Of a DNA stretch of 64,000 nucleotides, positions 6,533 through 25,401 are shown piece after piece (position 1 is the first letter of the stretch; each line of letters begins with the position of its first letter). The notes below the pieces were generated by a model. That model was not told the origin of the DNA. It searched no databases and worked only from the letters and a program-made list of their open reading frames with translations. The position numbers and the translations under genes are program-made. Source of the DNA: Phapecoctavirus DIJ07P1; the sequence record OZ035743.1; one strand, 5' to 3'.

Positions 6533-9130
6533 CTAGTGACAGGACGCCCAGGAGTTACCCACATCATATCCGGCAGTAAGCTGAACATTAAGATTGTAAA
6601 ATTCTCCAGCCTTAGTAACAGCTAAAGCAGCAAGTTCACCTGCCCGACTATAGGCTGTAAACCATCCACCTTTGGGAGATTCATGAATGTTAGCCCAAAT
6701 TTGCCCTGTCTCTTTTTCCTTATTATGCTTCCATTCTTCAACTTTAGCAAGGCATTCTTTATCAATTTTCTTTTGTTCTTCAGGATCGTCTACTTTCTTC
6801 CAACCTAATGATTCAGGTGAAAACCATTTAAATTCTACAAGGTTACGAGAAACTTCAAGCTGGGCTTCATCGTGATATGCAATCATTTGTTGCACGAAGT
6901 CTTTATTCTTCCAGTCATCTTTAAAGAAGTCAACACTTAGCCCTTCTTCTTCGATCATGTCGTCATAAATAACCATTGCACGTTTAGCACAGATAACCCC
7001 ACCACTTTGGAACAGAGAGTTAAGAATCGCGTGAGCAGAACGAGTAGGAACCTTACGACCGTCAATACCCAAAACATACTGTTTACCAGTCTTAACCCAG
7101 AAATCGTTTAAACGTTCTTTAAGACGCGCCAGTGGGAATGCAGCTTCCCAGAAAGCATCGAACACCAGTTGCCCTGTGTATTTATCGCTACCAATTGTTT
7201 TAGCAACCTTGTCTGCTTGTGCACCATAAGTGATCCCGTATTTAACAGATTTCGCCGGACTACGTTCAAATTTACGCCCAATAGTATCTGTAATACGTTT
7301 TGCCATCATGGTATGAACATCGTTAGGCTTCTCTAACAAGAGAGCGTTACAGTATTCATGAGGCTCCGGTTCGTAGCGCCAACAATAATGCGACTCAATC
7401 TTTGCTTCCAAAGAGTCGAAGTCATAACCGATCTGGAAGTATTTAGGAACTTCTACACCAAACAAGTTACGCATCTCCCATCCAAACAAAGATGTGACAC
7501 GAGGGATATTGGCTACAGACCTATGCTTCATACGAGAGGTTGCAGCATCACATGTAGCGGCTGGTGTAGGAATACGCCCATCCGCCCTTACTGCGGCTAA
7601 GAAACCTTTATCGTATTCTTGATCTTCTTCATCTTCTTCCCAATCAGCACCGCCACCTAAAATAGAGTTCCTACGATGCTTATACGTTAAGTATTCTACA
7701 ATCTGAGTAGCATAAGGAAATTTCTCACCCAAAGCTTGCAGGTTAGGACAAATTTCTTTTTCCTGGCCTTTGGTAAAACATGGGTTAGTCAATACTTTAA
7801 GACCGCGACCTTTACCTTTTGCTATACGCTCTTGAATCTTCCTTTCCAAGGTTTCCGGTGTGCACTCCAGATGATCACAACGATCCTGACAAAAATTAGA
7901 AGATAGAGTTTGCTCAACGTAAGCTCGAATACCTTTCTGAAGTTCTTCCTCGCTCTTTTTAATCTTGGTGCCAGATTTAAGAGTCAAGTCTTTATCTTTA
8001 TATTCAGACGGTACCCAACCTAATCCTACAAGCCAGTTTTTAATATGGGTTGTATCGTTCAATGTTGCAGGGATGTTAGGATCACATAGAGGTTCATCTG
8101 CTGCAACTGGCAGTTTCCACTCTTTCCCCAACATAACTAACCACCAATCGCCATCCCTCTCTTCCAAATGACCATCATGTTTCTTAGCAAAATTAATCAT
8201 ATGGTTAGTTGGCTCTAAGTTCTTTTTAATTTGCAACTTAGGTGGAATAAAAGCCTTAAGATAACCTTTTGTTGCTGGTTTAGGTGGCAAAATAGGCTCA
8301 ACGAGTAAACGAAGACGCTCCATTTCTGCATCCAAAAAAGCAAGGTTCTCTTCTGCTTGCTTCATGTTAAAAGCAAACCCACGGTGTTCCTGGCGTGTAA
8401 TAATGTCTGCTACACGTTGTTCAAGTTCAAATGGACCTTCCCATTTATCATAATCGCCCCATTCTTCCATAAGGTAATTATATACGCTCGTATTGGCTTT
8501 GTTGTCATAGATACAGTAATAAAGCATATCCGCAGCAAAAGTCTTAAATCGATCTTCTTCTGGAATCTCTTTACGGAAATCTATTTTTACATCACCACCT
8601 GCCTTTCGAGAAAGTGCTGCCAAACTATGTCCTGATTTGCCCTCAATCTTTCGATCTGGGTTTAACACTTTACTCAAAATCAAGGAGTCAATAAGTTTTA
8701 CCTTATTTTTGCCCCACGTATTATATTTAACACTGTAATCTAAGCCATAAAACAGTTTTGTAGCCAACCAGTCATAGTTGATACCGTTGTGAGCCACAGC
8801 CATTTCAACTAGATATTCAGGCTTATCTTTAAAATAACCTTCATGATTAATAAAATCTGGGAAATCTTTTAGTTGAAAATGTGTGTAATCTTGCGCCACA
8901 TATTCTTTAAGAACATATGTGTATTTACCATCTGACTCTTCATAAGGACGCCCATCAAAGATGTATTTAGGGCCATCGTGGAAAGCTACTATTTCTCCTG
9001 TTTCATGGTTCTCTAAGACAATACAGTGCATTTGAAATGTGTCTTTGAGACGATAAGGACTAGCTAAATAATCGATAGTGTCATTATTCAACAATCCGTT
9101 TGCTTCAATATCCCATGTAAACTTACTCAC
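6533..9130 (-). CDS. DNA polymerase, family A, with N-terminal 3'-5' exonuclease
   Basis: 865 aa; DIEANGL (Exo I); GYDFDSLEAKI (motif A); RSPAKSVKYGITYGAQ (motif B); YHDEAQLEV (motif C). Confidence 0.9.
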   Translation of the reverse strand: MSKFTWDIEANGLLNNDTIDYLASPYRLKDTFQMHCIVLENHETGEIVAFHDGPKYIFDGRPYEESDGKYTYVLKEYVAQDYTHFQLKDFPDFINHEGYFKDKPEYLVEMAVAHNGINYDWLATKLFYGLDYSVKYNTWGKNKVKLIDSLILSKVLNPDRKIEGKSGHSLAALSRKAGGDVKIDFRKEIPEEDRFKTFAADMLYYCIYDNKANTSVYNYLMEEWGDYDKWEGPFELEQRVADIITRQEHRGFAFNMKQAEENLAFLDAEMERLRLLVEPILPPKPATKGYLKAFIPPKLQIKKNLEPTNHMINFAKKHDGHLEERDGDWWLVMLGKEWKLPVAADEPLCDPNIPATLNDTTHIKNWLVGLGWVPSEYKDKDLTLKSGTKIKKSEEELQKGIRAYVEQTLSSNFCQDRCDHLECTPETLERKIQERIAKGKGRGLKVLTNPCFTKGQEKEICPNLQALGEKFPYATQIVEYLTYKHRRNSILGGGADWEEDEEDQEYDKGFLAAVRADGRIPTPAATCDAATSRMKHRSVANIPRVTSLFGWEMRNLFGVEVPKYFQIGYDFDSLEAKIESHYCWRYEPEPHEYCNALLLEKPNDVHTMMAKRITDTIGRKFERSPAKSVKYGITYGAQADKVAKTIGSDKYTGQLVFDAFWEAAFPLARLKERLNDFWVKTGKQYVLGIDGRKVPTRSAHAILNSLFQSGGVICAKRAMVIYDDMIEEEGLSVDFFKDDWKNKDFVQQMIAYHDEAQLEVSRNLVEFKWFSPESLGWKKVDDPEEQKKIDKECLAKVEEWKHNKEKETGQIWANIHESPKGGWFTAYSRAGELAALAVTKAGEFYNLNVQLTAGYDVGNSWASCH

Positions 9131-9924
9131 TATTCCTCCTTTCTAATGTTCTCCAGAACCCACTGAAGTTCTTTTAAACTTAAACTTCTTACTCCCGCAG
9201 TTTTACTAGCTTCAGCTTTAAGTAACGGGTAAGCCTCAATGATACGCGTTTTAAGATCAGAAGTCAAGGCTTTTAAAAAATAGGTAGATGCTTCAGATAA
9301 AGAATCTTCTTCTGATAACACTTTACCTGCACTTGCTCCCGCTCTCCTAACGGCTATATCGTAGTCTTTACTGTTACCTAATACGAATAGTCGATTCTCT
9401 CCTAAAACAACGGGAGAACGCTTCTCGTTGCGTTTAATCCATATCTGGAATACACAAGGAACATCCCAAGGTTCTCCATGAAGAATAAAAGATCCTTTTG
9501 GACATTCTTCTTCGTAAAGAAGATGCATATGGGGATTTAGTTTGTGTGCAAAAAAGATTTTTTGAAATGTGCGAGGCAAGATAAAACAAATACCACCTTC
9601 GTTATCCAGCATTTCAGCACAATGGTTAAAGAATTTAATGGCAAGACTAGCATTTTTTCCAAATGGAGGATTACCGACAAAAGCAGTTACACTACCAACA
9701 GACTCAACAGATTGAGCTAAAAAATCTGCCTCAATACAATCTTCAAACTTAGGGTCAATATCAAAAGAAGTTATGTTTTTAAAACAAGAAGAGAAAGCTC
9801 CTTCTCCCGCAGATGGTTCTACGTAGTTAGCTTCCTCTCCAAAAATTTCTTTGATCTTATCACATAAGAACCCCGCATAAGCGGGGTTAGTGTAATATTG
9901 ATCAAGTGTGTTCAACTTGCTCAA
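9130..9924 (-). CDS. DNA N6-adenine methyltransferase (orphan, no adjacent nuclease recognised)
   Basis: 264 aa; VEPSAGEGAF (AdoMet motif I) and FVGNPPFGK (NPPF catalytic motif). Confidence 0.75.
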   Translation of the reverse strand: MSKLNTLDQYYTNPAYAGFLCDKIKEIFGEEANYVEPSAGEGAFSSCFKNITSFDIDPKFEDCIEADFLAQSVESVGSVTAFVGNPPFGKNASLAIKFFNHCAEMLDNEGGICFILPRTFQKIFFAHKLNPHMHLLYEEECPKGSFILHGEPWDVPCVFQIWIKRNEKRSPVVLGENRLFVLGNSKDYDIAVRRAGASAGKVLSEEDSLSEASTYFLKALTSDLKTRIIEAYPLLKAEASKTAGVRSLSLKELQWVLENIRKEE

Positions 9925-10459: not shown

Positions 10460-12236
10460 AATAGTTGCTATCCGTAGGCAAATTAGCAGGATTGTTGAAA
10501 TACTGCTCTTTGTCATGCAGAGTTGCAGTTCTAATATCATAGTAAAACTGCCCTGCTGGACCAGTCTCTGAGAACTCACGGTTTTTTAGGATAAAGCAAT
10601 GAGTCGTATTTCGTTCTACAGGGTCTTCAGCGGCTTTATCTCGTTCCAAAGCCAAGGTAATACCAGCACCTTTAGCCAAGAAACTACTACCCATTGCATC
10701 GTCCTCTGTTAAGTGTTCATTGCCACCATTAGCCGATTTCTTAACGTGTGAGATGACGATAATAGTTATAGCATACTCTTTCATGATGCGCTTCAACCAT
10801 GTTGCTAACTCTTCCTGGGCTTGAACATCCATACCAGAAAGCAAATCAGAATAAGGGTCGATAACAAGAATTGTTACTCCAAAATAGATGATCATCTCCA
10901 AAACTTTTTCTTTGATAGACTCCACATCTGCTCCACGATCATCACACACATAAAAACGTGGTGATCCATCTTCTCTTTCGTAAAAATCTAGAATTTTTTC
11001 TTTATTCTCTTCCAGGATTTGAAATTTCTCTTCCGGTGTTTTCCTATGTAGAGGAATGTGCAGGAAAGAGGACAACAGGTTACGAGAATATTTCTTATAG
11101 GTTGCTTCCAATGACAGAATACCGAGGGTATGTTCTGGGTGTGCAACGATAATATGTTTGGTGATCTCGTTCACCATCAAAGTTTTACCGATACTGGTCT
11201 TTGCCAGGATAACTGTAATCTCTTCCTCTACTAAACCACCACCCAGCATATTTGCAGCAACACGCATAAAAGGAGGCAAGGTAATCATCTTGGATTCCAA
11301 GCATTCTAATGCAGCTTCATACAAGACATTAGAAGCATAAACACCTGCTGGGGTGTATAGACGAGCACTCCAAAAAGCTTTTACGAAATCTTTTGCACGA
11401 CCTTCTTCCAGATACTGATTGGCATCCTTAAGATCCATCTGCATACGGTAGACTTTGTTACGAGGCAGCACCTTAACAATATTTTCAAATGCCTCATTAC
11501 CCGCTTTGTCATTATCCATGCAAACAATAATCTTCTTAAATTTTTCAAAGAAAGGATATTGTGCCTGAACTTGTTTATACATACTGGTTTCACCAGTTGT
11601 GCCACTAACTACTGCTGGAAGTTCATATTTGTTGTCCAAGTTTTCAGACAGCATCTGATAAGCTGCCAGAGCATCGTGTTCACCACCTGTAATTACAACA
11701 GTATGAGAACGGTCTGCAAAACGAATTTGTCCAAAAAGATCTACATCTTTACCTACTTGACCAATAGGTTTACTGAAATCTTTAGGATGAATACGACGCT
11801 TAAAACCAACCAATTCTTTACCGATAGTAGTCGGATATAAACAACTTTCTACTACCATCTGATCCCCTTCCTGACGGTATTCATAACGAACACCATAGAA
11901 AGATGAAACTTTTTCTTTAATACCTCGATAACCACGTGGGTTGGTTGATGTTTCTTGAACAATTTTACGATGAATCTGTTTATTAAATTCCGAACCCACA
12001 ATCTCCTCCTCTTCTTCTAAAACTTCACCATTTTCTCGTAACCATTCTACGCTAGGAATAGTGTATTCACACGCAAAGCACTTAGCACCTTTATGCTCTC
12101 CATTAGAATCTAATCCATAAACCATCAGGTTATTACGAGAGCGATCCTTGCCATTTTTCATGCAGCGCGGACAACCTGTATGCCCTTCCTTGCTAAGATC
12201 AACATCAAATCCATATTTAGTTATAATGTGCGACAC
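10458..12236 (-). CDS. Primase-helicase (T7 gp4-like: zinc ribbon, TOPRIM, DnaB-like helicase)
   Basis: 592 aa; N-terminal CPRC...CFAC zinc ribbon; central VVITGGEHDALAAYQ; C-terminal Walker A AKTSIGKT. Confidence 0.85.
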   Translation of the reverse strand: MSHIITKYGFDVDLSKEGHTGCPRCMKNGKDRSRNNLMVYGLDSNGEHKGAKCFACEYTIPSVEWLRENGEVLEEEEEIVGSEFNKQIHRKIVQETSTNPRGYRGIKEKVSSFYGVRYEYRQEGDQMVVESCLYPTTIGKELVGFKRRIHPKDFSKPIGQVGKDVDLFGQIRFADRSHTVVITGGEHDALAAYQMLSENLDNKYELPAVVSGTTGETSMYKQVQAQYPFFEKFKKIIVCMDNDKAGNEAFENIVKVLPRNKVYRMQMDLKDANQYLEEGRAKDFVKAFWSARLYTPAGVYASNVLYEAALECLESKMITLPPFMRVAANMLGGGLVEEEITVILAKTSIGKTLMVNEITKHIIVAHPEHTLGILSLEATYKKYSRNLLSSFLHIPLHRKTPEEKFQILEENKEKILDFYEREDGSPRFYVCDDRGADVESIKEKVLEMIIYFGVTILVIDPYSDLLSGMDVQAQEELATWLKRIMKEYAITIIVISHVKKSANGGNEHLTEDDAMGSSFLAKGAGITLALERDKAAEDPVERNTTHCFILKNREFSETGPAGQFYYDIRTATLHDKEQYFNNPANLPTDSNY

Positions 12237-12248
12237 TTTGTTCTCCTG

Positions 12249-12527
12249 TTAAAATGGTTCGTTAGTCTCCATCATATATTCTGCTTCTAGTTCTTCCATA
12301 TGCTTTCTAAATTGGAAAGCAATTTCTGCTACAGTTACATTTAAATCTTTTTCAAAAACTTCTGTAGAGCCTTCATAAAAACGAATACCGTCAATTAAAA
12401 GCCCTCCGTGGTAATCCCAATCACTTTCACGAGAAAGCGGGTTAGGCTCTTCATAATAGTAATCCACCTCCACAACTAAGGCTTTCCCGTTACGAGTGGT
12501 GTATTCAAAATCAAAAGTGTTAATCAT
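12249..12527 (-). CDS. Hypothetical protein
   Basis: 92-aa ORF. Confidence 0.55.
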   Translation of the reverse strand: MINTFDFEYTTRNGKALVVEVDYYYEEPNPLSRESDWDYHGGLLIDGIRFYEGSTEVFEKDLNVTVAEIAFQFRKHMEELEAEYMMETNEPF

Positions 12528-13471
12528 TATAGCTCCTCAAATAAAAGTCTACGACGCTCATTCAACACATCAATGTGATAATGAGTCCTGACATACTTAG
12601 CTAATGCTAATCCTTTCTCCATGCAAACATTAGGAGCACTTAATAAGTATTCCGTAATATCTTTCCACTCGGAAGGTGTTTCAGCAAAGAATAACAAATC
12701 TTTAAACTCTTGTGTATGATAATTCTCACGAGGAGAACAGATCAAAGGTAAACCCTTAGCACCTGCCTCAAGAATTTTAAGATTGCTTTTTGCATTATTA
12801 AACACGTTATCAATCAATGGCGCAAGACTGATTTGATGACCATCGTAAGATTCCATGTAGTTGGCATATGGTCTTACACCTTCATAAACACAAGTTGGTG
12901 CGACATTTTCTCTGATTACAGACCATTCACGACTACTTAAAACTTCAGAATCCCTACGAAAACCACATATTGTAAGATCTTTACCAAAATCAGGCAAGAT
13001 AGCCAAATCTTGTTTATGTGTTTCACTTCCAGCCCAGACTAATGGAGTTTTGGAGTAGCGATCACGGGTCAACACAAATTGACCTTCATCGTAAGGAAGT
13101 CCATTAGGGATTATGTGCACATTATCATTGTATTGTGAAAGTTCAACTTGCAAGGCAGGTGTCGTAGTTGTAACAAGGTCACTGTGCTCTAAAAACCATT
13201 TTAAATGTTCACGAATACCTGATTCAAAAATACCTTCTAACATGTGTCCTTTTGGAATAACTAAAGAGTCATCCAAATCCATAACCATTTTAAAGCCTAG
13301 GTTTTTAAGGGCTAAAAAGCCCTCTTTACCTTTTGTTGGCACTCCGTTAAAAACGAAAACGTTGTGTTTAGGTTGTGAAGAGAACTGCCTTGAGTAAGGC
13401 AGCACTACCCTATGGAAATCGCAGACACTATAATTGATTCCGTTACGATTGTCAAGAATTATTTGTCCCAT
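12527..13471 (-). CDS. Glycosyltransferase, GT-B-like (paralogue 1)
   Basis: 314 aa; C-terminal KSNLKILEAGAKGLPLICS resembles GT1 motif; paralogous to next gene. Confidence 0.6.
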   Translation of the reverse strand: MGQIILDNRNGINYSVCDFHRVVLPYSRQFSSQPKHNVFVFNGVPTKGKEGFLALKNLGFKMVMDLDDSLVIPKGHMLEGIFESGIREHLKWFLEHSDLVTTTTPALQVELSQYNDNVHIIPNGLPYDEGQFVLTRDRYSKTPLVWAGSETHKQDLAILPDFGKDLTICGFRRDSEVLSSREWSVIRENVAPTCVYEGVRPYANYMESYDGHQISLAPLIDNVFNNAKSNLKILEAGAKGLPLICSPRENYHTQEFKDLLFFAETPSEWKDITEYLLSAPNVCMEKGLALAKYVRTHYHIDVLNERRRLLFEEL

Positions 13472-13478
13472 ACTTCAC

Positions 13479-14426
13479 CTACAAACTTTCAATAACCTGG
13501 CGTCGCAATTCGTTTGCATCTGCTAGATTATAGTGTGTTCGAACATGTTCCGCTAAGAACAAGCCACGATCTTCCCGATAGTTTGGATTGCGAAGAAGCT
13601 TAACAATTTCGTAATGCCATTCTGCTTTGTTCTCTGCGTAAGCAACAGCACGAGCATCTACAGGGTTAAAATAAGGTAATACCTTAGAACAAACAATCGG
13701 AATACCCTTTGCTCCAGCTTCCAGGATTTTGAGATTACTTTTACAATTATTAAAATCATTATCTACCAAAGGAGCTATAGCAATAGCATGACTTTCGTAA
13801 ACACTCATGTAATTATCTAAATCTTTTACAGCAGCTTTATATTTAGCGTTTGGTAAATTTCTGCGAATCTTAATCCACTCTTGTCCCGTGATGCTCTGTG
13901 ATGCTTCATATCCCGCAATAGTAAGAAGTTCATCATCGAAAGTATTAGAGACTAGTCGTAAGTCGGGTTCGTGACTAGCACCGCCAGCCCATACAACAGG
14001 GGTACCGGATGAACGATCATTTGACAAAGTGAATTGTCCACTATCAAAAGGAAGTGCATTTCGGATCACAACAACATTCCTATTTAAGTGACGGATCTTA
14101 TATGCCAAGTATTCCGTAGTCACAATAACCACATCAGCAAGCTTAACCATAGCCACAATAGCATGAGTGTTTGACTCGTATAAACTTGCCAAATAATGCT
14201 CTGGATTAAGTTGGTAAAAATCATCTAAGTCTACAACAATCTTAACACCTTGACGTTTCAAAGATAAAACGTATTCTGCACCTTTAGAGTGGATACGGTT
14301 AAACACAACAACATCTTTCTTAGGTTGAATATTATTGTTGTTAAATGGCATAACAATACGATGATAGTCACAACCGCTGTGAGGTTTTGCATCAATTTTT
14401 AGTTTAGACCATTTTTTATTTGACAT
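13479..14426 (-). CDS. Glycosyltransferase, GT-B-like (paralogue 2)
   Basis: 315 aa; KSNLKILEAGAKGIPIVCS; shares VVDLDD / ILEAGAKG blocks with 12527..13471. Confidence 0.6.
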   Translation of the reverse strand: MSNKKWSKLKIDAKPHSGCDYHRIVMPFNNNNIQPKKDVVVFNRIHSKGAEYVLSLKRQGVKIVVDLDDFYQLNPEHYLASLYESNTHAIVAMVKLADVVIVTTEYLAYKIRHLNRNVVVIRNALPFDSGQFTLSNDRSSGTPVVWAGGASHEPDLRLVSNTFDDELLTIAGYEASQSITGQEWIKIRRNLPNAKYKAAVKDLDNYMSVYESHAIAIAPLVDNDFNNCKSNLKILEAGAKGIPIVCSKVLPYFNPVDARAVAYAENKAEWHYEIVKLLRNPNYREDRGLFLAEHVRTHYNLADANELRRQVIESL

Positions 14427-15099
14427 GTGCTAGTGCCTCCTCATAGGAAATTCGGATTTTCCCATTTTTAATATCCTCTAAAGATGCTTTATATTCTTCC
14501 CAGTTAATCCCAATAGCAGCTTCTTTCTCTTCTTTTGTCAGATTAGCAAAAGGCATAGGATTGTTTCCAAAAACATCGTCTGGGTGGATATAAGCCATGA
14601 TACGAAGTGGACAAGGTGTTGCCTGAATACCATGATTCAAACCAGCAGCTTTCAAACGGTGTCCCCATTCGGCATCTTCAAAACCATAACCGTGAGTGTA
14701 AGGGCGGAAATAACCCATCTTCTCAACAACGGCACGAGAATACATTGCAAATTGACACATTGCAAGTTCCCAGAGAATAACTTCTCCTTTGCTTCCAACA
14801 ACTTTATCTTTGAAGTACTCCGGCATACCAAAAAAATCCCATCCTCCAGAAACAGCTTGATCTACAAAGTATGTTTCCCATCCTTCCATGACTGGGTAGC
14901 AATCATCATCAAAAATAAACCAATAATCATAACCTTCTTCATAAAACTGGTGCATAAGTTCATTCCTGGCGTAAGCTACACCTTTACGATCTGGATCGTT
15001 GAATACTCGAAAATCTGCATGTGGATCTGTTACAAGATAGTCTTTAAGTGGACGGACACCTACAGTGATAACACCCACTCCGATTTTAATATTTTCCAT
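14416..15099 (-). CDS. Glycosyltransferase, GT-A fold (DxD)
   Basis: 227 aa; FIFDDDCYP DxD motif and YGFEDAEWG block. Confidence 0.6.
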   Translation of the reverse strand: MENIKIGVGVITVGVRPLKDYLVTDPHADFRVFNDPDRKGVAYARNELMHQFYEEGYDYWFIFDDDCYPVMEGWETYFVDQAVSGGWDFFGMPEYFKDKVVGSKGEVILWELAMCQFAMYSRAVVEKMGYFRPYTHGYGFEDAEWGHRLKAAGLNHGIQATPCPLRIMAYIHPDDVFGNNPMPFANLTKEEKEAAIGINWEEYKASLEDIKNGKIRISYEEALAHVK

Positions 15100-15107
15100 T
15101 TTCTCTC

Positions 15108-15671
15108 CTAGATAGTTTTACTGTGATCGTGACAGTGTAATAAATGATGTATAGACCGTTGAGGATTTGTTTGACCTAATCTGTAAATGTGAAACAGATA
15201 CATTCCCCGCATCAATCCTAACCTCTTTCCTTTTTCATGTAAAGTGCGAGAGAAAATTAGGTCGAATTGGATAGATTTTTCTTCGAAAGGAATTTCATTC
15301 CACAATGATTTTCTAAAAAGCAAAAAGAAACCTGCCAGAGGTGTTCCGAAAGGAACTTCTTCAACACTCACTTTATGATATTCTCTTGCAATCTTAGCAT
15401 ATTCTATATGGTTTAGAATATCTGGATCATCGTTAATTTGGTTAGAGAAAAGCTGATAACCACTACCTAACCTGTTACAAGTTGCACCTATTACATCAAA
15501 AGGCGGGTTTGACATAACAAGCTCTTCAAGCATAGATGGTTGATCAGGCAGGAGGAACATTGTATCGGTATCTCTTAAGCACACCCAACTATCATCTGGA
15601 AGAACGGCAATAGCTTCATTGATAGCCTTGCCGATATTTCCTGTCAGATAGGGAGTAATATAATAAATCAT
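15108..15671 (-). CDS. Putative GT-A-like glycosyltransferase
   Basis: 187 aa; VCLRDTDTMF DxD-like motif. Confidence 0.45.
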   Translation of the reverse strand: MIYYITPYLTGNIGKAINEAIAVLPDDSWVCLRDTDTMFLLPDQPSMLEELVMSNPPFDVIGATCNRLGSGYQLFSNQINDDPDILNHIEYAKIAREYHKVSVEEVPFGTPLAGFFLLFRKSLWNEIPFEEKSIQFDLIFSRTLHEKGKRLGLMRGMYLFHIYRLGQTNPQRSIHHLLHCHDHSKTI

Positions 15672-15687: not shown

Positions 15688-15879
15688 TTAACTGTCAGCT
15701 ACAATCCCACGTTTAATCATTTCTTGTTGGATTTGGATGACACGATCTCGTGCTTCCATATATTCTTTAAAAGATTCTTGGAGATGGTCACGAGCTACAT
15801 CCCGTAGTTTAATCAGCTTGTCGTTTGTCACTTCTTGAAGAGAGATCTCGCCAGTTTCATTGGTCCCAAGCGTTTTCAT
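15688..15879 (-). CDS. Hypothetical protein
   Basis: 63-aa ORF. Confidence 0.5.
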   Translation of the reverse strand: MKTLGTNETGEISLQEVTNDKLIKLRDVARDHLQESFKEYMEARDRVIQIQQEMIKRGIVADS

Positions 15880-16087
15880 TTACAACCTCCTTAATAGCTA
15901 CTGCACAGTTCTTACAAATACATTGACCTTTGTTCTTAGAAATTTCAATGTAAGGTTCATTTTCGTTTTCTCCGCGTCGTGAATCGTATATTACAGTATT
16001 GAAGCAGACAACGCAAATGTTTTTAATAACGACATATTTTTGCACTTTTTGTTTAGTGCGAAAATTGACTTCAATAACTTCTCCCAT
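15857..16087 (-). CDS. Small zinc-ribbon protein
   Basis: CVVC...CICKNC Cys pairs; start moved to internal Met (MGEVIEV) to avoid long overlap. Confidence 0.5.
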   Translation of the reverse strand: MGEVIEVNFRTKQKVQKYVVIKNICVVCFNTVIYDSRRGENENEPYIEISKNKGQCICKNCAVAIKEVVNENAWDQ

Positions 16088-16371
16088 CAGTGAATCTCCC
16101 CTAAAATGTTGTTTTGAGACATTACTGCGGAGCATTCTACAGCATCATGAGTCCTTGCAAAACGCTCCCACAACACAACATCTACTTTAAGAACCATACA
16201 AGGATAAATACTGTCGTTGATCATATCAATACTGTATTTATCTACATCCTTTTCATCTTCCATAAACAAAGTAGCGTATGCTTCCAAATGCTTACGGGTG
16301 TAGTATACGTCCTCTTCGGTAAGACCGACAACCAGGTAACTTGCTACAACAACAGTATTATCTTCTTGCAT
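16087..16371 (-). CDS. Hypothetical protein
   Basis: Start moved to internal Met (MQEDNT) preceded by GGGGAG RBS. Confidence 0.5.
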   Translation of the reverse strand: MQEDNTVVVASYLVVGLTEEDVYYTRKHLEAYATLFMEDEKDVDKYSIDMINDSIYPCMVLKVDVVLWERFARTHDAVECSAVMSQNNILGEIH

Positions 16372-16372
16372 T

Positions 16373-16894
16373 TTAACTCCCCTTTGGTAGATAGAAACCA
16401 TGCACTTTATCTCGATAAACAAGACGCATATCACGCTCCCAGTGTGTCTTTATATTCCGCTTCTTGAAGTATAGAGCACCTTTAGTAACATCTAAAACAG
16501 ACCGCAATTCAGGAAAATGTTTCTCTAAATAAAGTAAACGCTCCGCTATTGCTTTTGCTTCCTGCCACTTATCTTTCTCTGTTACGTTAAAAGTTTTCGC
16601 ATATGAGAATTGCCCTTTCTGGAACAAGACTCCTCTGACTGTGTTAGGAAAGTAGGCATCATTTCTTCTATTGATTACCACATTCCCAACGGCATTCATT
16701 CCTTTTTTACCCAGACCGCGACCTTCTGCGTAAATTGCACAAGCTAATAGAATTTTATCATTATATTGTTTTGTACATTTGTGAACTACTTTAGCGGTTT
16801 TTACGTTTGCAGCTTCGGCTTTCGCCACAACAGGTGTAAATGTAAAAGCAGTTAAGGATAGTAACGCAACTGTTACAAAGTTTTTTATCAGCAA
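16373..16894 (-). CDS. SleB-like cell-wall hydrolase with signal peptide (lysis-enzyme candidate)
   Basis: 173 aa; N-terminal hydrophobic signal ending AKA; resembles SleB/Hydrolase_2 family; own TTGCAA-17-TATACT promoter upstream. Confidence 0.65.
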   Translation of the reverse strand: MLIKNFVTVALLSLTAFTFTPVVAKAEAANVKTAKVVHKCTKQYNDKILLACAIYAEGRGLGKKGMNAVGNVVINRRNDAYFPNTVRGVLFQKGQFSYAKTFNVTEKDKWQEAKAIAERLLYLEKHFPELRSVLDVTKGALYFKKRNIKTHWERDMRLVYRDKVHGFYLPKGS

Positions 16895-16993: not shown

Positions 16994-17596
16994 TTATGGA
17001 CATTCATACCATTCTTTTTTACCACCGAAGGCCATCACCACATCGCAAATATCCAGACCAGCTTTACCTACACCATATGCTTTCAGTTTCCATTCCCCAT
17101 CTTCACGAACCAAGGAAGCCACGTGGCAGATTGTGTTGCCAGCTACTTCAGGAGCCAGGAAGTCAAAATCCAGAATTTCCACATTGCGCTCGGAGTCGAA
17201 GATTTTAAGCATACCTTCAGAAGCATGACCAAAACGTTTCAGACCTGTATCATCATCAATGGTCAGAACAAAGGCAATCTCTTGTGCATCAGGAGAGATT
17301 TTAGCCAGAGTAATATCAATCTGCTCCATGCTGCCAGTTCCATCACGAACATCGTCACCAGCGAAGGTAGAACGTTCAGGATCAAACTTGTTAGCATAGC
17401 AAACCAGATGACGTGCAGACAGCATTTCAGGATTGCCAGCGGCATTGTGACGACAAACCAGTGCACTTACATCCAGATCCAGTTTAGAATCAGATTTCCA
17501 AGAGAATTCCAGGCGCAGTTCTTTCAGAGCCGGAGCAACTTTCTTCAGGGAAATTTTTTCGCTAGAGCCTTTTTTCAGGGAAATTTTATCAGTCAT
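16994..17596 (-). CDS. terD: TerD-domain protein
   Basis: 200 aa; N-terminal repeated ISLKKG/ISLKK and overall TerD-family character. Confidence 0.75.
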   Translation of the reverse strand: MTDKISLKKGSSEKISLKKVAPALKELRLEFSWKSDSKLDLDVSALVCRHNAAGNPEMLSARHLVCYANKFDPERSTFAGDDVRDGTGSMEQIDITLAKISPDAQEIAFVLTIDDDTGLKRFGHASEGMLKIFDSERNVEILDFDFLAPEVAGNTICHVASLVREDGEWKLKAYGVGKAGLDICDVVMAFGGKKEWYECP

Positions 17597-17611
17597 CTTT
17601 TGTCTCCTCTA

Positions 17612-17881
17612 TTATTTAAGTGTAATACCAGTTACAGTCAATTCTACTTCCAAAAGCTTAGATGTGTTTTGGATTGATACTAATTGTGCATGATGGTTTA
17701 GTTCTACAGCAGAATAATCGTTTTCCCCATCATCTACTTTTAAATAAACAATGACTTCACTAAGGTCTAAACCATTTTCGTCAAATGCATTTTCATAGAC
17801 GAAAGTATCTCCTACATCCAAATCCTTAATGGTAAGGCATCGTTTATTTATTTTTTGCTCATCAATTTCGAAGTTTAACAC
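17612..17881 (-). CDS. Small protein, paralogue A (immediately upstream of terD)
   Basis: 89 aa; shares FxI..E / DLG..F.Y / EVxLxVTxITLK blocks with 18903..19181. Confidence 0.6.
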   Translation of the reverse strand: MLNFEIDEQKINKRCLTIKDLDVGDTFVYENAFDENGLDLSEVIVYLKVDDGENDYSAVELNHHAQLVSIQNTSKLLEVELTVTGITLK

Positions 17882-18110
17882 TTCTTCCTCCTAATGTTAT
17901 CTCCGGTTTGTATATACGAAGAATTATAGCATTTTCATTTTCTTTGTCAACCCATTCTTCATAATCAGGCCATACATGAATCTCTACTCTACTTACAATA
18001 TCTTCCATTCGCACAGTCCCAATGAAATACTCTTTGAGACTGCGCATAATGAAAGCTTCTCTCTCGCGCCAATAATTTTCTATGACTTGAGAGGCAAGCT
18101 CGTCGATCAT
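17862..18110 (-). CDS. Hypothetical protein
   Basis: 82-aa ORF. Confidence 0.5.
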   Translation of the reverse strand: MIDELASQVIENYWREREAFIMRSLKEYFIGTVRMEDIVSRVEIHVWPDYEEWVDKENENAIILRIYKPEITLGGRSVKLRN

Positions 18111-18901
18111 TTTTTAGCACCTACTTTAACAACCCACTCTCCGAACTCTTCAGATAAGAGTTTGTCATAAAGCTCTGAATCTGTCAAGTCTAAATCTTTA
18201 ATGCCAATAAAACCAACATTATCATAAGCATTTGCCAGTTCTTTCAGGAAGCCAAACTTCTCATTACCAACGCCAACCATGAACCAATAAATAGGTTTAT
18301 TCTTATTCTCTTCAATAAGACGACGAACAGCACTAGGATCACCATTCTCACCATCCGTCTGGAAGAATACAACACCAGGGGTAACGTCAGCACCTGGTTC
18401 AGACACAGCTACAACCTTTTCACGCTCTACAGATACTGTTTCAGTTTTACCAAGCAGACGATTAAAGAAGCCTTTCTTTGGAGCCTCCTCTTGTACCACT
18501 TGTTTAGTGGTAATATATTTGGTAACAGTGCCAAAATACTCATCGTAGATATCTGCCATTACAGGGGCGTAATTTGTTCCACCTCCGATACGAACATTGC
18601 GCATACATTTACCAACATAGTCATCGTAAACGTCTGCTGTTGCTGGAGTAAGCTCTTGGGAACTCGTATTGAAGGCCCACATATCAATTTGTTGATTATC
18701 GTCGAACAGCATACCAAAAGGAAGCAGTTTACCTACAAAATCACTCACTACCCCACTAGAATATAGACCATGCATACTACCAGAAATATCTAGAGCACAT
18801 GCTACACGAAGAACAATCTTACCTTCATTCAGGTTCTTATTCTTTTTCAGAGAGAAAGCAAGGTTTTCTTGACGTTTTTTCAGGCTGATTTTCTCGGACA
18901 T
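18107..18901 (-). CDS. vWA-domain protein with TerD-like N-terminus (TerY/TerF-like)
   Basis: 264 aa; N-terminal MSEKISLKK...SLKK; MIDAS motif DISGSM (DxSxS). Confidence 0.75.
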   Translation of the reverse strand: MSEKISLKKRQENLAFSLKKNKNLNEGKIVLRVACALDISGSMHGLYSSGVVSDFVGKLLPFGMLFDDNQQIDMWAFNTSSQELTPATADVYDDYVGKCMRNVRIGGGTNYAPVMADIYDEYFGTVTKYITTKQVVQEEAPKKGFFNRLLGKTETVSVEREKVVAVSEPGADVTPGVVFFQTDGENGDPSAVRRLIEENKNKPIYWFMVGVGNEKFGFLKELANAYDNVGFIGIKDLDLTDSELYDKLLSEEFGEWVVKVGAKK

Positions 18902-18902
18902 A

Positions 18903-19181
18903 TTATTTCTCCTTCTTAAGTGTAATATTGGTAACTTCTAAATCTACTTCCACCATATTTGTATCTGGCGGGATGCAATGAGTATAGCCTCGTTGTGCTA
19001 GTGATCCATTAATACAGATCGCACTGTTTGTGGAATTTTTAATGAACACCAAGTTACGGTAGGTATCCAACCCTGCGTCTTCATAGGCATCATAATACAT
19101 GAATGTGGCCCCTATGCCAAGATCTTCGAAAGCAATAGGTAAATCCTGACTTTTTTCTTCTTGAATATTGAATCTAAACAC
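18903..19181 (-). CDS. Small protein, paralogue B (immediately upstream of vWA gene)
   Basis: Paralogous to 17612..17881; start set at GTG after GGAGG RBS (ORF-track ATG at 19247 would overlap upstream gene by 74 nt). Confidence 0.55.
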   Translation of the reverse strand: MFRFNIQEEKSQDLPIAFEDLGIGATFMYYDAYEDAGLDTYRNLVFIKNSTNSAICINGSLAQRGYTHCIPPDTNMVEVDLEVTNITLKKEK

Positions 19182-19737
19182 GCATACCTCCTCTACCAAT
19201 TTTGAAGCCCAAATCGTAAGCTTCCTTAGTGATCTTTTGTAACTCACTTATAGGAAGTGTTACAAGAGGATCATCTTCTTCAATTTCCATCTTGTCATCT
19301 TCTGTTTCAATGAGAGTATTATGCACTTTGTGATAAGGGTTGTCAACACGTTTAAACTTATTCTTTTCTGTGCTGAAAAAACAATCTGGATCTTCTTCAC
19401 CATCACCCCAACCTTGGTTAGGATCTCCGTCAGATTGTTCTGTAGGGATTTCACCTGTAAAATACTCTTCCAGCACCATAGCGATACCGTCCCTTGGATT
19501 TGAGGAATGCATCAAATCACAAACCTTACTCCAATCCATAGCCCATTCGAATCGTTCGCGAACACCATTTTCATCCTCCTTTCCAGAGAAAACACAACCA
19601 TAACTATCATAGTTGCCATACATCTCTTCAATAACAACACCGTCCTTCAAAAGAAAGAGGTAGCAAGGTGATCCGTCGAAAGAAGTAGAAAGGGCAGCTT
19701 TGCCCGATTCTTTGCACAAAAAACTAAAACAACCCAT
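19174..19737 (-). CDS. Hypothetical acidic protein
   Basis: 187-aa ORF. Confidence 0.6.
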   Translation of the reverse strand: MGCFSFLCKESGKAALSTSFDGSPCYLFLLKDGVVIEEMYGNYDSYGCVFSGKEDENGVRERFEWAMDWSKVCDLMHSSNPRDGIAMVLEEYFTGEIPTEQSDGDPNQGWGDGEEDPDCFFSTEKNKFKRVDNPYHKVHNTLIETEDDKMEIEEDDPLVTLPISELQKITKEAYDLGFKIGRGGMRV

Positions 19738-19940
19738 TACAAACCCTCCTTCAGATTATCAAGAGCTACAGTGGTTTCACAAAATTCTCCATAAGCTTTA
19801 TGATGTTCCAGAAAAGCTTCGGGTCCACCCCAGTCATTATCTTGTGTATTCCAACCATCAATAAAAGCATCTTCAATGATTGTGATCAGTTCTTGTCGGG
19901 TTAACTGGATAATATTAGGATCGTTATCGTAGTTAAACAT
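19737..19940 (-). CDS. Hypothetical protein
   Basis: 67-aa ORF. Confidence 0.55.
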   Translation of the reverse strand: MFNYDNDPNIIQLTRQELITIIEDAFIDGWNTQDNDWGGPEAFLEHHKAYGEFCETTVALDNLKEGL

Positions 19941-20106
19941 CTTCTTCCTCCTCTAAAATATGAAACCCGTAATTACAATAGTCCTGAAAGGTTTCGTGCG
20001 CAAGATCTTCTATATCCTCTTGAGACATATCATCTTCAATTTCGATATCCACAACCTCATTGCATCCACACCAAGCAGTTTCAATATTCACTCGTAATAT
20101 TTTCAT
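19936..20106 (-). CDS. Hypothetical small protein (below ORF-track cutoff)
   Basis: about 56-aa ORF read manually (MKILRVNIETAWCGCNEVVD...); ATG overlaps upstream stop. Confidence 0.35.
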
Positions 20107-20303
20107 TACTCCTCCTCCTCATTGAAGTCAATATCTGCAAGGAGTTGGAATTTACGGAAGTTACGACAACCTTCATAAATATAACAATCACGACAAACTG
20201 CTAGAACACTTGGGGGATATATGCCTCCCATCGGTGCGAATCGTTTTTCGTCATCATAACGGACACCAATGTCTTCATCAATTATATAGATACGGATTCT
20301 CAT
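20106..20303 (-). CDS. Hypothetical Cys-containing small protein
   Basis: 65-aa ORF. Confidence 0.5.
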   Translation of the reverse strand: MRIRIYIIDEDIGVRYDDEKRFAPMGGIYPPSVLAVCRDCYIYEGCRNFRKFQLLADIDFNEEEE

Positions 20304-21412
20304 TTACCAAGCCCTCGTTTCACAGCAGCTACCATCCCGTCTTCCAAAGATTGAACTTCATTAATATAATCAACACGAGCAGCACGGGCTTCCGTATTGA
20401 TGCGGTTAGTTTCTTCCAACATCTTAACCAAGTTTTCCTGATCGTGACGCAGAGTTTCAATATCCAACACTTGACGGTTAGCCAGTGCTGCTGCTTCGAT
20501 CTGATTCTGTGTGGCAAGATCGCTACCCAGTTTAATTGCCAGGTTAAATTCATCAAGAACGTTATTCTGCGTCTCTGCTGCTTTCATTTGACGTAAGCTC
20601 TCGATATACATTGAGAAGTTAGCAGAGTAAGCAGGAATAACATTATTTACTATGTTACGCGCAGATCGCATTAAGCTTGCAGAAACTTTTTGCATACCTT
20701 GTACACGCGGTCCCATTTGGACACACAGTAGGCGCAATGCTTTTAAATCTGCAATACGAATCTCCAGAAGATCCAAAGTATCTCGGATCACTTGTCGCTG
20801 TTCTACTGCATCTTCTGGAAGAGCAGCCAAAGCTTGTTCTTCTTTTTCATAGGTTGCTGTTAGAAGCTGCATATCTCGGTTCAAACTTGCAGCATATTGT
20901 CCAATAGCTTGATGTAGCTTTTCAAGATATACCAAGGAATCTTCTTCTTTGCGAATATCCATTTGAAGGTTTTTTACCAACTCTTCAATACGGTTATTAA
21001 CATTATCAAACTCCCCAAACAGATCTTCTTTCATACCCATAACTTTTTTAATGAGTTTAGTAATACCCTTGCTTTGTTTAATAGAGTTTGGATCAAGTTG
21101 TTTTGCCTGTTTAATCAAAGCTGTGAGTCGTTCACTCATCTGATCGCCTTGATTACTACGTTGATGTTTTAATACCTCGGCATTCAAGGAACGCAAGGTT
21201 GTTCCTGCCTCTGCTCCAATCTCTTCGATCTCCTGTCGGGTCATAGAAGGCAAAACTGGAACTTCTTGCGGTGCCGCTGGTGCATAAACAGGACTGGCAT
21301 CTAACACGCTTGGAGCGAATACAGATTTACTTGCATCTGTTGTTGCAGCAAATACGCTCATTTCAGGTTTCTTCTGACAGCCAGTAGCTGCTTTTAAAAA
21401 TGGACTTGTCAT
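20300..21412 (-). CDS. Coiled-coil protein, possibly TelA-like
   Basis: 370 aa, helical/coiled-coil composition; TelA assignment rests only on size, composition and Ter context. Confidence 0.6.
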   Translation of the reverse strand: MTSPFLKAATGCQKKPEMSVFAATTDASKSVFAPSVLDASPVYAPAAPQEVPVLPSMTRQEIEEIGAEAGTTLRSLNAEVLKHQRSNQGDQMSERLTALIKQAKQLDPNSIKQSKGITKLIKKVMGMKEDLFGEFDNVNNRIEELVKNLQMDIRKEEDSLVYLEKLHQAIGQYAASLNRDMQLLTATYEKEEQALAALPEDAVEQRQVIRDTLDLLEIRIADLKALRLLCVQMGPRVQGMQKVSASLMRSARNIVNNVIPAYSANFSMYIESLRQMKAAETQNNVLDEFNLAIKLGSDLATQNQIEAAALANRQVLDIETLRHDQENLVKMLEETNRINTEARAARVDYINEVQSLEDGMVAAVKRGLGK

Positions 21413-21999
21413 TCTTCATTCTCCTCTTCTGCATCTCTTATATATGGTGAAACACCGTACTCTTTAGCTACTTTAACCCAATCGTCCCATTTATACAACC
21501 ATAATTTTCCTTCGGTCCCTTCTTTATCTGATTTCAACCACATATTAGGTTGCTTACCTGGGTACATGCGATTAGGTTTACGATTATAACCTCTAACACA
21601 TCTTGTCGCAAACCTATCTACCAGAACAAGAACATATTTATATTCGTGGTTCAACGGCTCTTTGGAAGTGGCTTTAGGATTAGCCCCTAACTCTGCTGCC
21701 AGTTTTTGCCAATGAGCACCGTGTCTACTAAACTTACCCATACAACCATCAATAGCATGAGCAATTTCGTGCTTCATTGTATCCACGATCATATCTCTTG
21801 TAGAGTTCTTATGCAAGTGCCAATTTACAACAACAATTTTATCTCGGTAGTTGCACCAACCGAAAGAGTTATTCACTTTGTTTCTAACACAAGCTTTATA
21901 TCCTGCTTCACGTAACATGTTGTAGTAAACAGGAAAATCTTCTTTTATTTCCTGCATCACTTCCCACCACAAGAGTTGCAAGTCTCTCTCGGTATACAT
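21409..21999 (-). CDS. SprT-like zinc metalloprotease
   Basis: 196 aa; MKHEIAHAIDG HExxH motif. Confidence 0.65.
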   Translation of the reverse strand: MYTERDLQLLWWEVMQEIKEDFPVYYNMLREAGYKACVRNKVNNSFGWCNYRDKIVVVNWHLHKNSTRDMIVDTMKHEIAHAIDGCMGKFSRHGAHWQKLAAELGANPKATSKEPLNHEYKYVLVLVDRFATRCVRGYNRKPNRMYPGKQPNMWLKSDKEGTEGKLWLYKWDDWVKVAKEYGVSPYIRDAEEENEE

Positions 22000-22002
22000 A
22001 AC

Positions 22003-22596
22003 TTACACCTTAAAAGTGAAATGCGTGGTCGTGGTTTCAAAATCAGGACCAGATAAACGTGCACTGAAATCTGAAATATTTGTAATTAAAAAGCTTTTAT
22101 GCATACCTAACACAGCTACGCTTTCAATATCTTCTACTAACATTTCAATCATGTTAGAAACATGGCTGAACGTAGAGTTTTGTTTTTTGATGGTGTAGAA
22201 AGAAAGATTCCCACCTGCTGTATAAGATACCTCTTCAAAATCTTTAATGGTATATTGTGTGCCATCAGTAAAGAAAATGGTAGCTTTATTAGTAGCACGT
22301 TTCTTGTTTTTTGGTCCTTTTTTACGTTTACTGCGAGTAGGCAAACCGTTTGGGAACACCATAGCTACAAATTCTTCAGCAGAAACCTCCTTACCGAAAT
22401 CATAACCATAAGAAACAGCGTCTATAAACTCGTCATCTTCATTTTTAAAATAATGGAAATAGGGCCAATTTGAGAGATTATCGAGCATCTTATGCTCATC
22501 CACAGCAGAGAACGTATCCCTCAAAGCACGTGTGATTTGCAAAGCATTAGGCAAACTTTTAACACCTGTAATGGAAGTACGAATAGAAATTGTCAT
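22003..22596 (-). CDS. Hypothetical protein
   Basis: 197-aa ORF. Confidence 0.6.
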   Translation of the reverse strand: MTISIRTSITGVKSLPNALQITRALRDTFSAVDEHKMLDNLSNWPYFHYFKNEDDEFIDAVSYGYDFGKEVSAEEFVAMVFPNGLPTRSKRKKGPKNKKRATNKATIFFTDGTQYTIKDFEEVSYTAGGNLSFYTIKKQNSTFSHVSNMIEMLVEDIESVAVLGMHKSFLITNISDFSARLSGPDFETTTTHFTFKV

Positions 22597-22610
22597 TGTT
22601 TTTCTCCTTA

Positions 22611-23048
22611 TTAACGTCGCTTGCTACGAGATGAACTCTTTTTACTTAAAGGGCTATTGTAAGATTTACGAGTTGTATAGCTACTATTTGTTTTAAAAGT
22701 TTGTCTCGGCTTTTCATAAGTTTTTATCTCTTGTTTAGGCTTACTATAAAAATTAGTTTTCGGTTTAGGTGTATTATAATGTTTATTAATAATCGTTCTG
22801 TTATCGTTATAATCCCCACTGCTACGATTACTACCGCCACTCATCATATGCCCTAACAACATACCTGTAGCAAACTCACCAACACCGTTACTACTAGAAC
22901 CGCCACCATTGTTGATAATAGTTGTATCTCCGTCAGATCCTTGTTGAGCGTATTGTTGAGGAGGTTGTTGGTATTGTGCAGGATTTGTTTCATCCTCGCA
23001 AGCTGTTAAAAAGATACAACCAATTAAAATCAGGGCTAGTTTTTTCAT
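22611..23048 (-). CDS. Lipoprotein, Gly/Ser/Gln-rich
   Basis: Start set at MKKLALILIGCIFLTAC (lipobox LTAC); low-complexity mature region. Confidence 0.6.
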   Translation of the reverse strand: MKKLALILIGCIFLTACEDETNPAQYQQPPQQYAQQGSDGDTTIINNGGGSSSNGVGEFATGMLLGHMMSGGSNRSSGDYNDNRTIINKHYNTPKPKTNFYSKPKQEIKTYEKPRQTFKTNSSYTTRKSYNSPLSKKSSSRSKRR

Positions 23049-23231
23049 ATTTGCTTTCCTCGTTTTGGCTATTAATACATCTGTGTTTGAAATCTCCAGA
23101 GAAGCAATAAAGTTGCTCTCCATCTCGGTATAAACTCACTTTACTGCCGTTGATTACGCTTGTCAATACAAAAATTACAACAAACAACCCTATTGCAAAA
23201 CAAATATTTTCAAACACAACCAACAAGTATT

Positions 23232-23582: not shown

Positions 23583-23602
23583 AAGTCTCTCCTATAAAAT
23601 AG

Positions 23603-23618
23603 CCTCCCGAAGGAGGCT
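23603..23618 (-). terminator. Hairpin downstream of terC
   Basis: gcctcc-cgaa-ggaggc stem-loop, A/T-rich tail on minus strand. Confidence 0.5.
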
Positions 23619-23624
23619 CATCTA

Positions 23625-24599: not shown

Positions 24600-24616
24600 T
24601 CTTTTCTCCTCTCTCT

Positions 24617-24677: not shown

Positions 24678-24680
24678 CAC

Positions 24681-24902: not shown

Positions 24903-24914
24903 ACTAATCTCCTC

Positions 24915-25388: not shown

Positions 25389-25401
25389 TTTTAGCTCCTT
25401 A

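Follow-up and report, generated by a model that had tools for sequence, protein, structure and literature searches.

Why does a phage of Escherichia coli carry four glycosyltransferase genes in a row, and what do their products glycosylate? We addressed this question for Phapecoctavirus DIJ07P1, from whose sequence record OZ035743.1 a stretch of 64,000 nucleotides (hereafter called "the window") was analysed. A preliminary description of the window had placed four glycosyltransferases (GTs) at 12527-15671, and four minus-strand open reading frames (ORFs) indeed occupy exactly this interval: GT-B1 (12527-13471, 314 residues), GT-B2 (13479-14426, 315 residues), GT-A3 (14416-15099, 227 residues) and GT4 (15108-15671, 187 residues; the GT4 gene is to be distinguished from the GT4 family of enzymes mentioned below). 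According to the ORF list, the spacing between these genes is only -11 to +8 nt. From the gene context, we consider the best explanation of the cluster to be that its products attach a glycan containing rhamnose, by O-glycosylation in the cytoplasm, to at least one structural protein of the virion, with a probability that we place a little short of even.

As an annotation, the cluster is already known. RefSeq names all four products "glycosyltransferase" (phAPEC8 gp071-074), and all four match PHROG glycosyltransferase families over their full length, with E values from 6e-79 to 3e-149. GT-B1 and GT-B2 both match phrog_7162 (E = 1.6e-145 and 3e-149, respectively), while GT-A3 matches phrog_2456 (E = 6e-79) and GT4 matches phrog_14179 (E = 8.5e-113). 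The cluster region shows 95-99% nucleotide identity across 64 deposited genomes of Phapecoctavirus, the phAPEC8-like E. coli myoviruses of ~150 kb within Stephanstirmvirinae. Our searches of the literature found no experimental studies of these GT genes. What is new is that they belong to a distinct module, widespread among the phages of Gram-negative bacteria, which in this subfamily is accompanied by a complete pathway for deoxythymidine diphosphate (dTDP)-rhamnose.

What kinds of enzymes are encoded? Sequence searches of the PDB, with single sequences and with profiles, gave no meaningful match, and fold prediction was therefore needed. GT-B1 and GT-B2 are paralogues with 42% identity (E = 2e-78), in agreement with the pair of GT-B-like paralogues proposed earlier. 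The AlphaFold model of GT-B2 (predicted local distance difference test score, pLDDT, 95.7; predicted template modelling score 0.92) adopts a GT-B fold composed of two Rossmann-like domains, and the same fold is predicted for GT-B1 from its identity to GT-B2. When the model was compared with the PDB by Foldseek, 302 matches were obtained at E <= 0.001, and the best of them are GT4-family enzymes (E = 7e-10, template modelling (TM) scores of 0.58-0.65); the neighbours include GlgM, PglA, BshA, MshA, SdgB, TarM and Gtf3. Among the viral models, the nearest are uncharacterised caudoviral group-1 transferases. In Pfam, both proteins obtain sub-threshold matches only (Glyco_trans_1_2, Glyco_transf_4 and group-1 families), missing the gathering thresholds with 23.7 versus 25 bits for GT-B1, and 22.8 versus 27 bits and 20.4 versus 25 bits for GT-B2. 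Many homologues of the family carry precomputed PF13524 or PF13692 matches; judged by these profile scores, GT-B1 and GT-B2 are divergent family members. In the region of the EX7E motif, the invariant K229-S-N-L-K-x-L-E236-x-G238 segment keeps the second glutamate (E236), and the residue eight positions upstream is not a glutamate.

The other two proteins had been described as GT-A-like enzymes with a DxD motif, which the modelling bears out for GT4 and which the motifs and sub-threshold Pfam matches render probable for GT-A3. The AlphaFold model of GT4 (pLDDT 92) predicts a minimal GT-A fold with D34-x-D36, and its Foldseek matches, at TM ~0.5, are solely DxD-containing GT-A enzymes: GalNAc-T2, the LH3 GT domain, WrtF, RmlT and TarP. 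An alignment of 25 sequences shows almost no variation at D34 and D36, and a Pfam scan of GT4 yields no glycosyltransferase family. In GT-A3, an alignment of 17 sequences reveals the invariant residues R16, D64-D65-D66 and E141-D142. Its Pfam scores lie below the cut-offs (TAGT, 19.2 versus 27.5 bits; GT2, 14.5 versus 23.3; Glyco_transf_7C, 13.6 versus 23), and the TAGT match spans only profile positions 54-90 of 205. Sub-threshold matches to the same three families recur in eleven, five and three of the 17 members, respectively. GT-A3 is thus a probable GT-A-like glycosyltransferase of the GT2/TAGT type. No kinship between GT-A3 and GT4 was detectable by BLASTP or by profile-profile comparison, and with a profile-profile probability of 0.1 their common origin is unsupported. 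An NCBIfam scan of the four proteins gave nothing useful. None of the four contains a convincing transmembrane segment (the maximum of a 19-residue Kyte-Doolittle window is 0.76-1.65), and the one borderline hydrophobic stretch corresponds to the predicted strand E99-102 of the GT-B2 model, inside the first Rossmann-like domain.

Where else do these genes occur? A profile scan of viral contigs (IMG/VR) with the GT-B family detected at least 575 related stretches, while a scan of 185,579 bacterial genomes, each representing a species, with the same profile found 20 loci, several of them prophages. On inspection, homologues of GT-B2 that bear bacterial names proved to be prophage genes. The gene directly upstream of the prophage GT-B is a homologue of GT-A3 (37-43% identity), and a GT4 homologue (41-44% identity) is often present as well, as in the module of the prophages at loci L006, L009, L011 and L098 of our comparison. 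Hosts of prophages with the trio include Pseudomonas, Enterobacter, Serratia and Paraburkholderia. GT-B is present in every copy of the module; GT-A3 adjoins it in nearly all relatives above ~37% identity, and GT4 is more sporadic. Sequence comparison thus identifies the GT4/GT-A3/GT-B trio as a mobile, almost exclusively viral module, with GT-B2 as its core and most widely distributed element in the present phage. The GT-B duplication that produced GT-B1 is specific to the Phapecoctavirus/phi92 lineage, and the related lytic phages at L012, L021 and L022 have a single GT-B. A few non-phage copies exist. In Burkholderia dolosa (L008, 3025-8440) and Trinickia symbiotica (L010, 2742-9026), a lone GT-B directly follows genes for an intimin/invasin-type inverse autotransporter and a protein of 555-571 residues, for which Pfam gives no family. 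This context suggests adhesin glycosylation in Burkholderiaceae and, because the copies adjoin surface adhesins, hints at a protein acceptor for the family.

The position of the module in small temperate phages is the principal evidence for a virion acceptor. In the Pseudomonas alliivorans prophage (L009), the gene order is terS, TerL, portal, MuF, SPP1-type capsid, GT4, GT-A3, GT-B, tail terminator, tail tube and tape measure. At its edges, the module is separated from the neighbouring genes by only 16-42 nt, too little for a promoter or terminator of its own. In L040, TerL, portal, the S78 protease and an HK97-type capsid are followed by GT-B, head completion, tail tube and tape measure. In the Paraburkholderia prophage (L098), the trio lies behind TerL, capsid, portal, a collagen-repeat protein and head completion, and precedes a gp10-like protein, tail completion and a tail tube with Big_1/PKD domains. 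Another arrangement is found at L005, L006, L011 and L093-L095, where a Q antiterminator and/or lysis genes come first, followed by the GTs and then terS/TerL. More generally, TerL was detected in 23 of the 34 non-redundant viral loci outside Stephanstirmvirinae, always on the same strand as GT-B (23/23), and it starts 0.6-5.4 kb downstream of GT-B in 17 of the 23. The large neighbours of the module are dominated by terminase, portal and capsid families. Because the module thus stands beside or inside the operon for head-tail morphogenesis in small phages, as in L009, L040 and L098, we favour virion proteins as the acceptors. The nearly pure viral nature of the family, the solubility of the enzymes and a phage-encoded set of RmlABCD enzymes further support this reading.

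Which sugar could be used? The window corresponds to positions 73,842-143,111 of the relative vB_Ec-G1 (98.8% identical), and in that genome four adjacent genes outside the window, at 12056-15334 of locus L002 and among genes of nucleotide metabolism, encode RmlA, RmlB, RmlC and RmlD. All four exceed the cut-offs of the NCBIfam equivalog models: 465.5 versus 360.65 bits for rmlA, 429.4 versus 365.1 for the dTDP-glucose dehydratase, 225.4 versus 155.75 for rmlC and 237.4 versus 224.05 for rmlD. By these matches, the phage lineage encodes the complete dTDP-L-rhamnose pathway. The phage records with RmlC are about the same set as those with GT4 and GT-B, even as far out as Klebsiella phage 05F01, a distant relative, and therefore the pathway and the cluster are co-inherited across Stephanstirmvirinae. 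In independent lineages, an RmlB-like NDP-hexose 4,6-dehydratase recurs within the module itself. Five of the phage records, labelled Campylobacter jejuni (e.g., MG065645.1 A145 and MG065656.1 C3), are phi92-like genomes of ~146 kb; these host labels are probably wrong, because the GT and RmlC identities match those of the E. coli Justusliebigvirus phages.

We propose the following mechanism. The four soluble, nucleotide-sugar-dependent GTs would build a short rhamnose/6-deoxyhexose glycan on one or more phage structural proteins in the cytoplasm, during assembly. GT-B would attach the first sugar to Ser/Thr; we assign the initiating step to this enzyme because it is the sole universal element of the module and also occurs alone beside adhesin genes. 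The two GT-A enzymes would then extend the glycan, and at least one of the steps would use dTDP-L-rhamnose. The GT-B duplication in the present lineage may have provided a second acceptor or linkage specificity. Speculatively, the resulting glycan coat could alter the stability or antigenicity of the virion, or change how it interacts with host glycans or with the depolymerases of the phage itself.

Several points weigh against a virion acceptor. In the present phage, the structural-operon linkage seen in L009, L040 and L098 is replaced by a location between the primase-helicase and the Ter/endolysin genes; the cluster stands among replication, Ter and lysis genes, away from the structural genes. 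A candidate host-type promoter is located upstream and may drive the cluster. The flanks used to count neighbours were ±9 kb on genomes of ~35 kb, about half of a small genome, and the chance of a nearby terminase is already high at that scale; in addition, many of the distant loci represent one phage type and hence are not independent. The raw census of terminase proximity, inflated by the ratio of flank to genome size, was rejected as evidence, and gene distances and, mainly, within-operon cases were used in its place. The slot just upstream of the terminase is also a common one for DNA-modification genes, and terminase is listed among the neighbours of DNA-modifying GTs (10.1101/2023.12.21.572611). 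Our literature searches found no report of virion protein glycosylation in this subfamily, and the acceptor candidates examined, namely capsid tails and collagen-like proteins, yielded none. Capsid proteins encoded beside the module have the C-terminal sequences TSSSTT, APTT and LTTA, but these Ser/Thr tails were rejected as the acceptor, as the capsids of GT-less rV5-like phages align to residue 331 of 333 and no module-specific extension exists. Finally, its R...DDD...ED signature and sub-threshold TAGT matches give GT-A3 a weak resemblance to DNA-modifying GT-A enzymes; the signature is also present in TarP.

The collagen-like proteins were likewise set aside as acceptors, the repeats in L098 being Ser/Thr-poor. 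The tail fibre of the present phage (8-2032, plus strand, 674 residues) has collagen-like G-X-Y repeats at residues 210-227, 277-300 and 323-349, and is a possible glycosylation target, as a lead only. It is the only collagen-like protein in this phage; a collagen-repeat protein also adjoins the trio in prophage L098.

Could the acceptor be the phage DNA instead? The preliminary description had offered DNA, a host surface glycan and a phage protein as acceptors without ranking them; the small-phage context lends most support to the phage protein, while DNA glycosylation is disfavoured. A DNA acceptor would mean that rhamnose or another sugar is placed on a hydroxylated base of the phage, at sparse or sequence-specific sites and following an unrecognised hydroxylase, which we regard as very unlikely. 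Olsen et al. 2020 noted the dTDP-rhamnose pathway of these phages and proposed the rhamnosylation of hydroxymethylated nucleotides (PMC7552041), and the location of the cluster among replication genes, with a DNA methyltransferase nearby, would suit such a role. So would the fold of GT-B2: the enzymes that glycosylate DNA in RB69, DLP3 and RL38J1 are likewise of the GT-B type and resemble MshA and 7qsg, and a DNA acceptor is therefore compatible with it. The T4 alpha- and beta-glucosyltransferases are missing from the best 50 structural matches of GT-B2, but its likeness to the GT4 family rather than to these enzymes was withdrawn as evidence against DNA, because the RB69 and RL38J1 DNA transferases share its structural neighbours (PMC13326640). 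The known systems of phage DNA glycosylation (glucosyl-5-hydroxymethylcytosine (5hmC) in T-even phages, arabinosyl-5-hydroxycytosine (5hoC) in RB69/DLP3, and TET-TAGT) resemble the present cluster in combining GT-A and GT-B folds, sometimes with sugar-nucleotide genes; the likeness to MshA and 7qsg is common to GT-B2 and the RB69/RL38J1 enzymes, and the R...DDD...ED signature to GT-A3 and the DNA-modifying GT-A enzymes. However, the known routes to glycosylated DNA start from a ThyA-superfamily enzyme (5hmC, 5-hydroxymethyluracil, 5hoC) or from a C5-methyltransferase with a TET-like dioxygenase (PMC13326640; 10.1101/2023.12.21.572611), and neither is recognised here. The earlier caveat that no hydroxymethyl-pyrimidine pathway is seen in the window holds genome-wide, since the sole thymidylate synthase is of the ThyX type and no ThyA homologue was detected. 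When the complete vB_Ec-G1 genome and the window were searched by tblastn with E. coli ThyA, the best E value was 0.17; this match, at 55227-55445 of the window, lies on a non-coding strand, lacks the ThyA motifs and was dismissed as noise. Within ±10 kb of the module, the 107 loci contain no ThyA match at E <= 0.01. The ThyX-like "thymidylate synthase" of vB_Ec-G1 (PF02511; 21315-22313 of L002, minus strand, outside the window) leaves some room for a DNA acceptor, as this protein of 332 residues is divergent and falls below the NCBIfam cut-off (33.5 bits for Pfam Thy1; 30.9 versus 87.9 bits for NCBIfam thyX, TIGR02170). None of the three annotated methyltransferases matches a C5-methyltransferase family (two have no Pfam match at E <= 0.001, and the one in the window has a weak Eco57I match), and no dioxygenase is annotated among the 274 features of vB_Ec-G1, for which no genome-wide TET_JBP profile scan was made. 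The DNA itself is cut by restriction enzymes. HincII cut the whole phage collection except ESCO10, ESCO47 and ESCO58 (PMC10269720); these exceptions include no Phapecoctavirus, and therefore the DNA of ESCO5, ESCO37 and REC was cut. The HincII-cut Phapecoctavirus isolates share 98% identity with the present cluster. Similarly, the phi92-like phages Bas60-62 of the BASEL collection are "exceptionally susceptible" to restriction systems "despite a putative dTDP glycosylation machinery" (PMC8594841), and they carry orthologous GT and rml genes. The location of the module between capsid and tail genes in temperate phages of ~40 kb also speaks against DNA. Bulk DNA glycosylation is thus disfavoured. 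Of the related GT-containing contigs, ~65% are without a nearby base-modification partner (10.1101/2023.12.21.572611). A sparse, sequence-specific modification would be invisible at the restriction sites tried; in its most particular form, a rhamnose glycan placed at sparse sites independently of ThyA and of methyltransferase/TET enzymes, it would escape the restriction enzymes tried so far and would represent a new hypermodification chemistry, possibly directed against non-restriction defences, but we give this only a remote chance.

Alternatively, the GTs may act at the cytoplasmic face of the host membrane during lytic growth, on lipid-linked intermediates of lipopolysaccharide (LPS), enterobacterial common antigen or capsule, or else on a host protein. 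This would remodel the cell surface, thereby blocking superinfection or keeping progeny off debris, or would seize a host function; we consider it unlikely. The nearest structures do include GTs for lipid-linked and teichoic-acid acceptors (PglA, PimB, TarM, TarP, RmlT and WrtF), and PHROGs assigns all four genes to the category "moron, auxiliary metabolic gene and host takeover". The lysis-terminase interval of lambdoid prophages often carries accessory genes. The receptors of the present phages are enterobacterial common antigen and the LPS core (PMC8594841), and surface remodelling has been raised as an ancestral role of phage GTs (10.1101/2023.12.21.572611). Nevertheless, transmembrane segments and GtrA/GtrC-type partners are absent, which separates these genes from the Gtr serotype-conversion systems (GtrA/GtrB/GtrC): both consist of phage-encoded, glycan-changing genes, but the Gtr proteins are integral membrane proteins expressed in lysogens, whereas the four GTs here are soluble and reside in lytic phages or in late operons. 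Obligately lytic phages keep the module. Temperate phages hold it in the late operon, sometimes in the capsid-tail interval with no space for a promoter of its own, and it would therefore not be expressed in lysogens. Apart from prophages, bacterial chromosomes also contain hardly any members of the family, an unusual pattern for enzymes of envelope glycans. A small, nucleotide-like molecule would be another acceptor, either the product of the Ter-associated PRTase, HAD and Macro genes or a host signalling or defence molecule, and to this we assign a slim chance. The cluster is co-oriented with the genes for TerD, vWA-TerF, TelA, TerC, PRTase, HAD and Macro with no terminator between them, and small molecules are the acceptors of some relatives in the GT4 family, among them BshA, MshA and the tetrahydrobiopterin glucosyltransferase. 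Only in the large lytic lineage, however, does the trio occur together with the Ter genes; the small phages carry it without Ter, adjoined by structural genes, and the small ORFs that flank the cluster do not travel with the module either.

How do virion proteins as the acceptors compare with known systems? The soluble cytoplasmic GT-B enzymes SdgB/SdgA, for SD-repeat adhesins, and Gtf3/GtfC, for serine-rich-repeat adhesins, act on Ser, and other enzymes extend the glycan. The structural matches of GT-B2 include SdgB and Gtf3/GtfC, and the chromosomal GT-B relatives adjoin adhesin genes. The identity, however, is 12-17% at TM ~0.55-0.6, and many GT4-family enzymes with non-protein acceptors score equally, so this likeness is uninformative about the acceptor. 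The closest functional precedent, by analogy, is the virion glycosylation of mycobacteriophages; since the present case is known from genes alone, membership in that class is not claimed. According to the account of Freeman et al. 2023 (Cell Host Microbe) in PMC11256854, the capsids of mycobacteriophages Che8 and Rita bear covalent glycans. The two cases are alike in having several phage-encoded cytoplasmic GTs, and in the small relatives of the present module the GT genes likewise lie in or beside the structural operon. They differ in that the present phage has Gram-negative hosts, its own dTDP-rhamnose pathway and GT genes far from the structural genes, and the actinophage matches, from Streptomyces and Arthrobacter phages, are to GT-B only, at ~25% identity. 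In giant viruses, the PBCV-1 capsid glycans and the Mimivirus fibril glycans are made by virus-encoded enzymes, including those for rhamnose synthesis. Both these viruses and the present phage thus combine their own pathway for a 6-deoxyhexose nucleotide sugar with several cytoplasmic GTs, independently of the host; the giant viruses use the UDP-rhamnose route, while the phage uses the bacterial dTDP route (RmlABCD).

The remaining features of the neighbourhood are as follows. The cluster had been placed between the primase-helicase and a Ter module, and we identified both flanks: the primase-helicase gene is downstream, and the genes for TerD (16994-17596), a vWA-TerF-like protein (18107-18901) and TelA (20300-21412), all on the minus strand, are upstream. 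The same-strand block at 16994-26900, transcriptionally upstream of the GTs, also encodes SprT-like, TerC, Macro, ComF-like PRTase_3 and HAD proteins, and from these family assignments constitutes a near-complete Ter system. It recalls the Ter-associated gene sets for a "nucleoside-like metabolite" that Anantharaman, Iyer and Aravind are said to have predicted in 2012. A consensus scan detected a candidate sigma-70 promoter at 17923-17950 on the minus strand (TTGACA-16-TG-TATAAT, 12/12), within a small ORF or at its end and upstream of the genes for TerD, the endolysin, the GTs and the primase-helicase; no convincing minus-strand terminator was found between this promoter and the GT genes. The endolysin gene (16373-16894, minus strand) encodes a SleB-like cell-wall hydrolase (Pfam Hydrolase_2, E = 1.4e-17), and shares its strand block with the Ter, GT and replication genes, while the spanin and terminase genes are elsewhere. 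The small ORFs at 12249-12527, 15688-15879, 15857-16135 and 16087-16434 were rejected as parts of the module, as they are confined to the large lytic lineage. The nearby orphan DNA methyltransferase reported previously is also present (9130-9924): it has 264 residues, an NPPF motif, a weak Eco57I match in Pfam and a match to the PHROG DNA-methyltransferase family, and no nuclease gene adjoins it. Its closeness to the cluster, like that of the replication genes, seems to be coincidental, since other phages have the module without methyltransferase and replication genes. Next to it, the gene for DNA polymerase I (6533-9130, minus strand) is 2598 bp long, while the polA of vB_Ec-G1 (annotated as 3333 bp) carries an insertion of ~730 bp at the site corresponding to ~7383. 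An intron, an intein or an inserted homing-endonuclease gene could account for the difference.

The glycosylation of virion proteins would answer a question raised twice in the literature, namely why these phages keep a dTDP-rhamnose pathway despite their restriction-sensitive DNA. The phAPEC8-like and phi92-like phages are often-isolated, broad-host-range phages of E. coli, which are considered for therapy and biocontrol. If they do make a rhamnose coat of their own, antibody recognition could change, as reported for mycobacteriophages, and so could the stability and clearance of the virions and their interactions with host surface glycans or with their own depolymerases. Virion glycosylation would then be common among the phages of Gram-negative bacteria, beyond the actinophages and the giant viruses.

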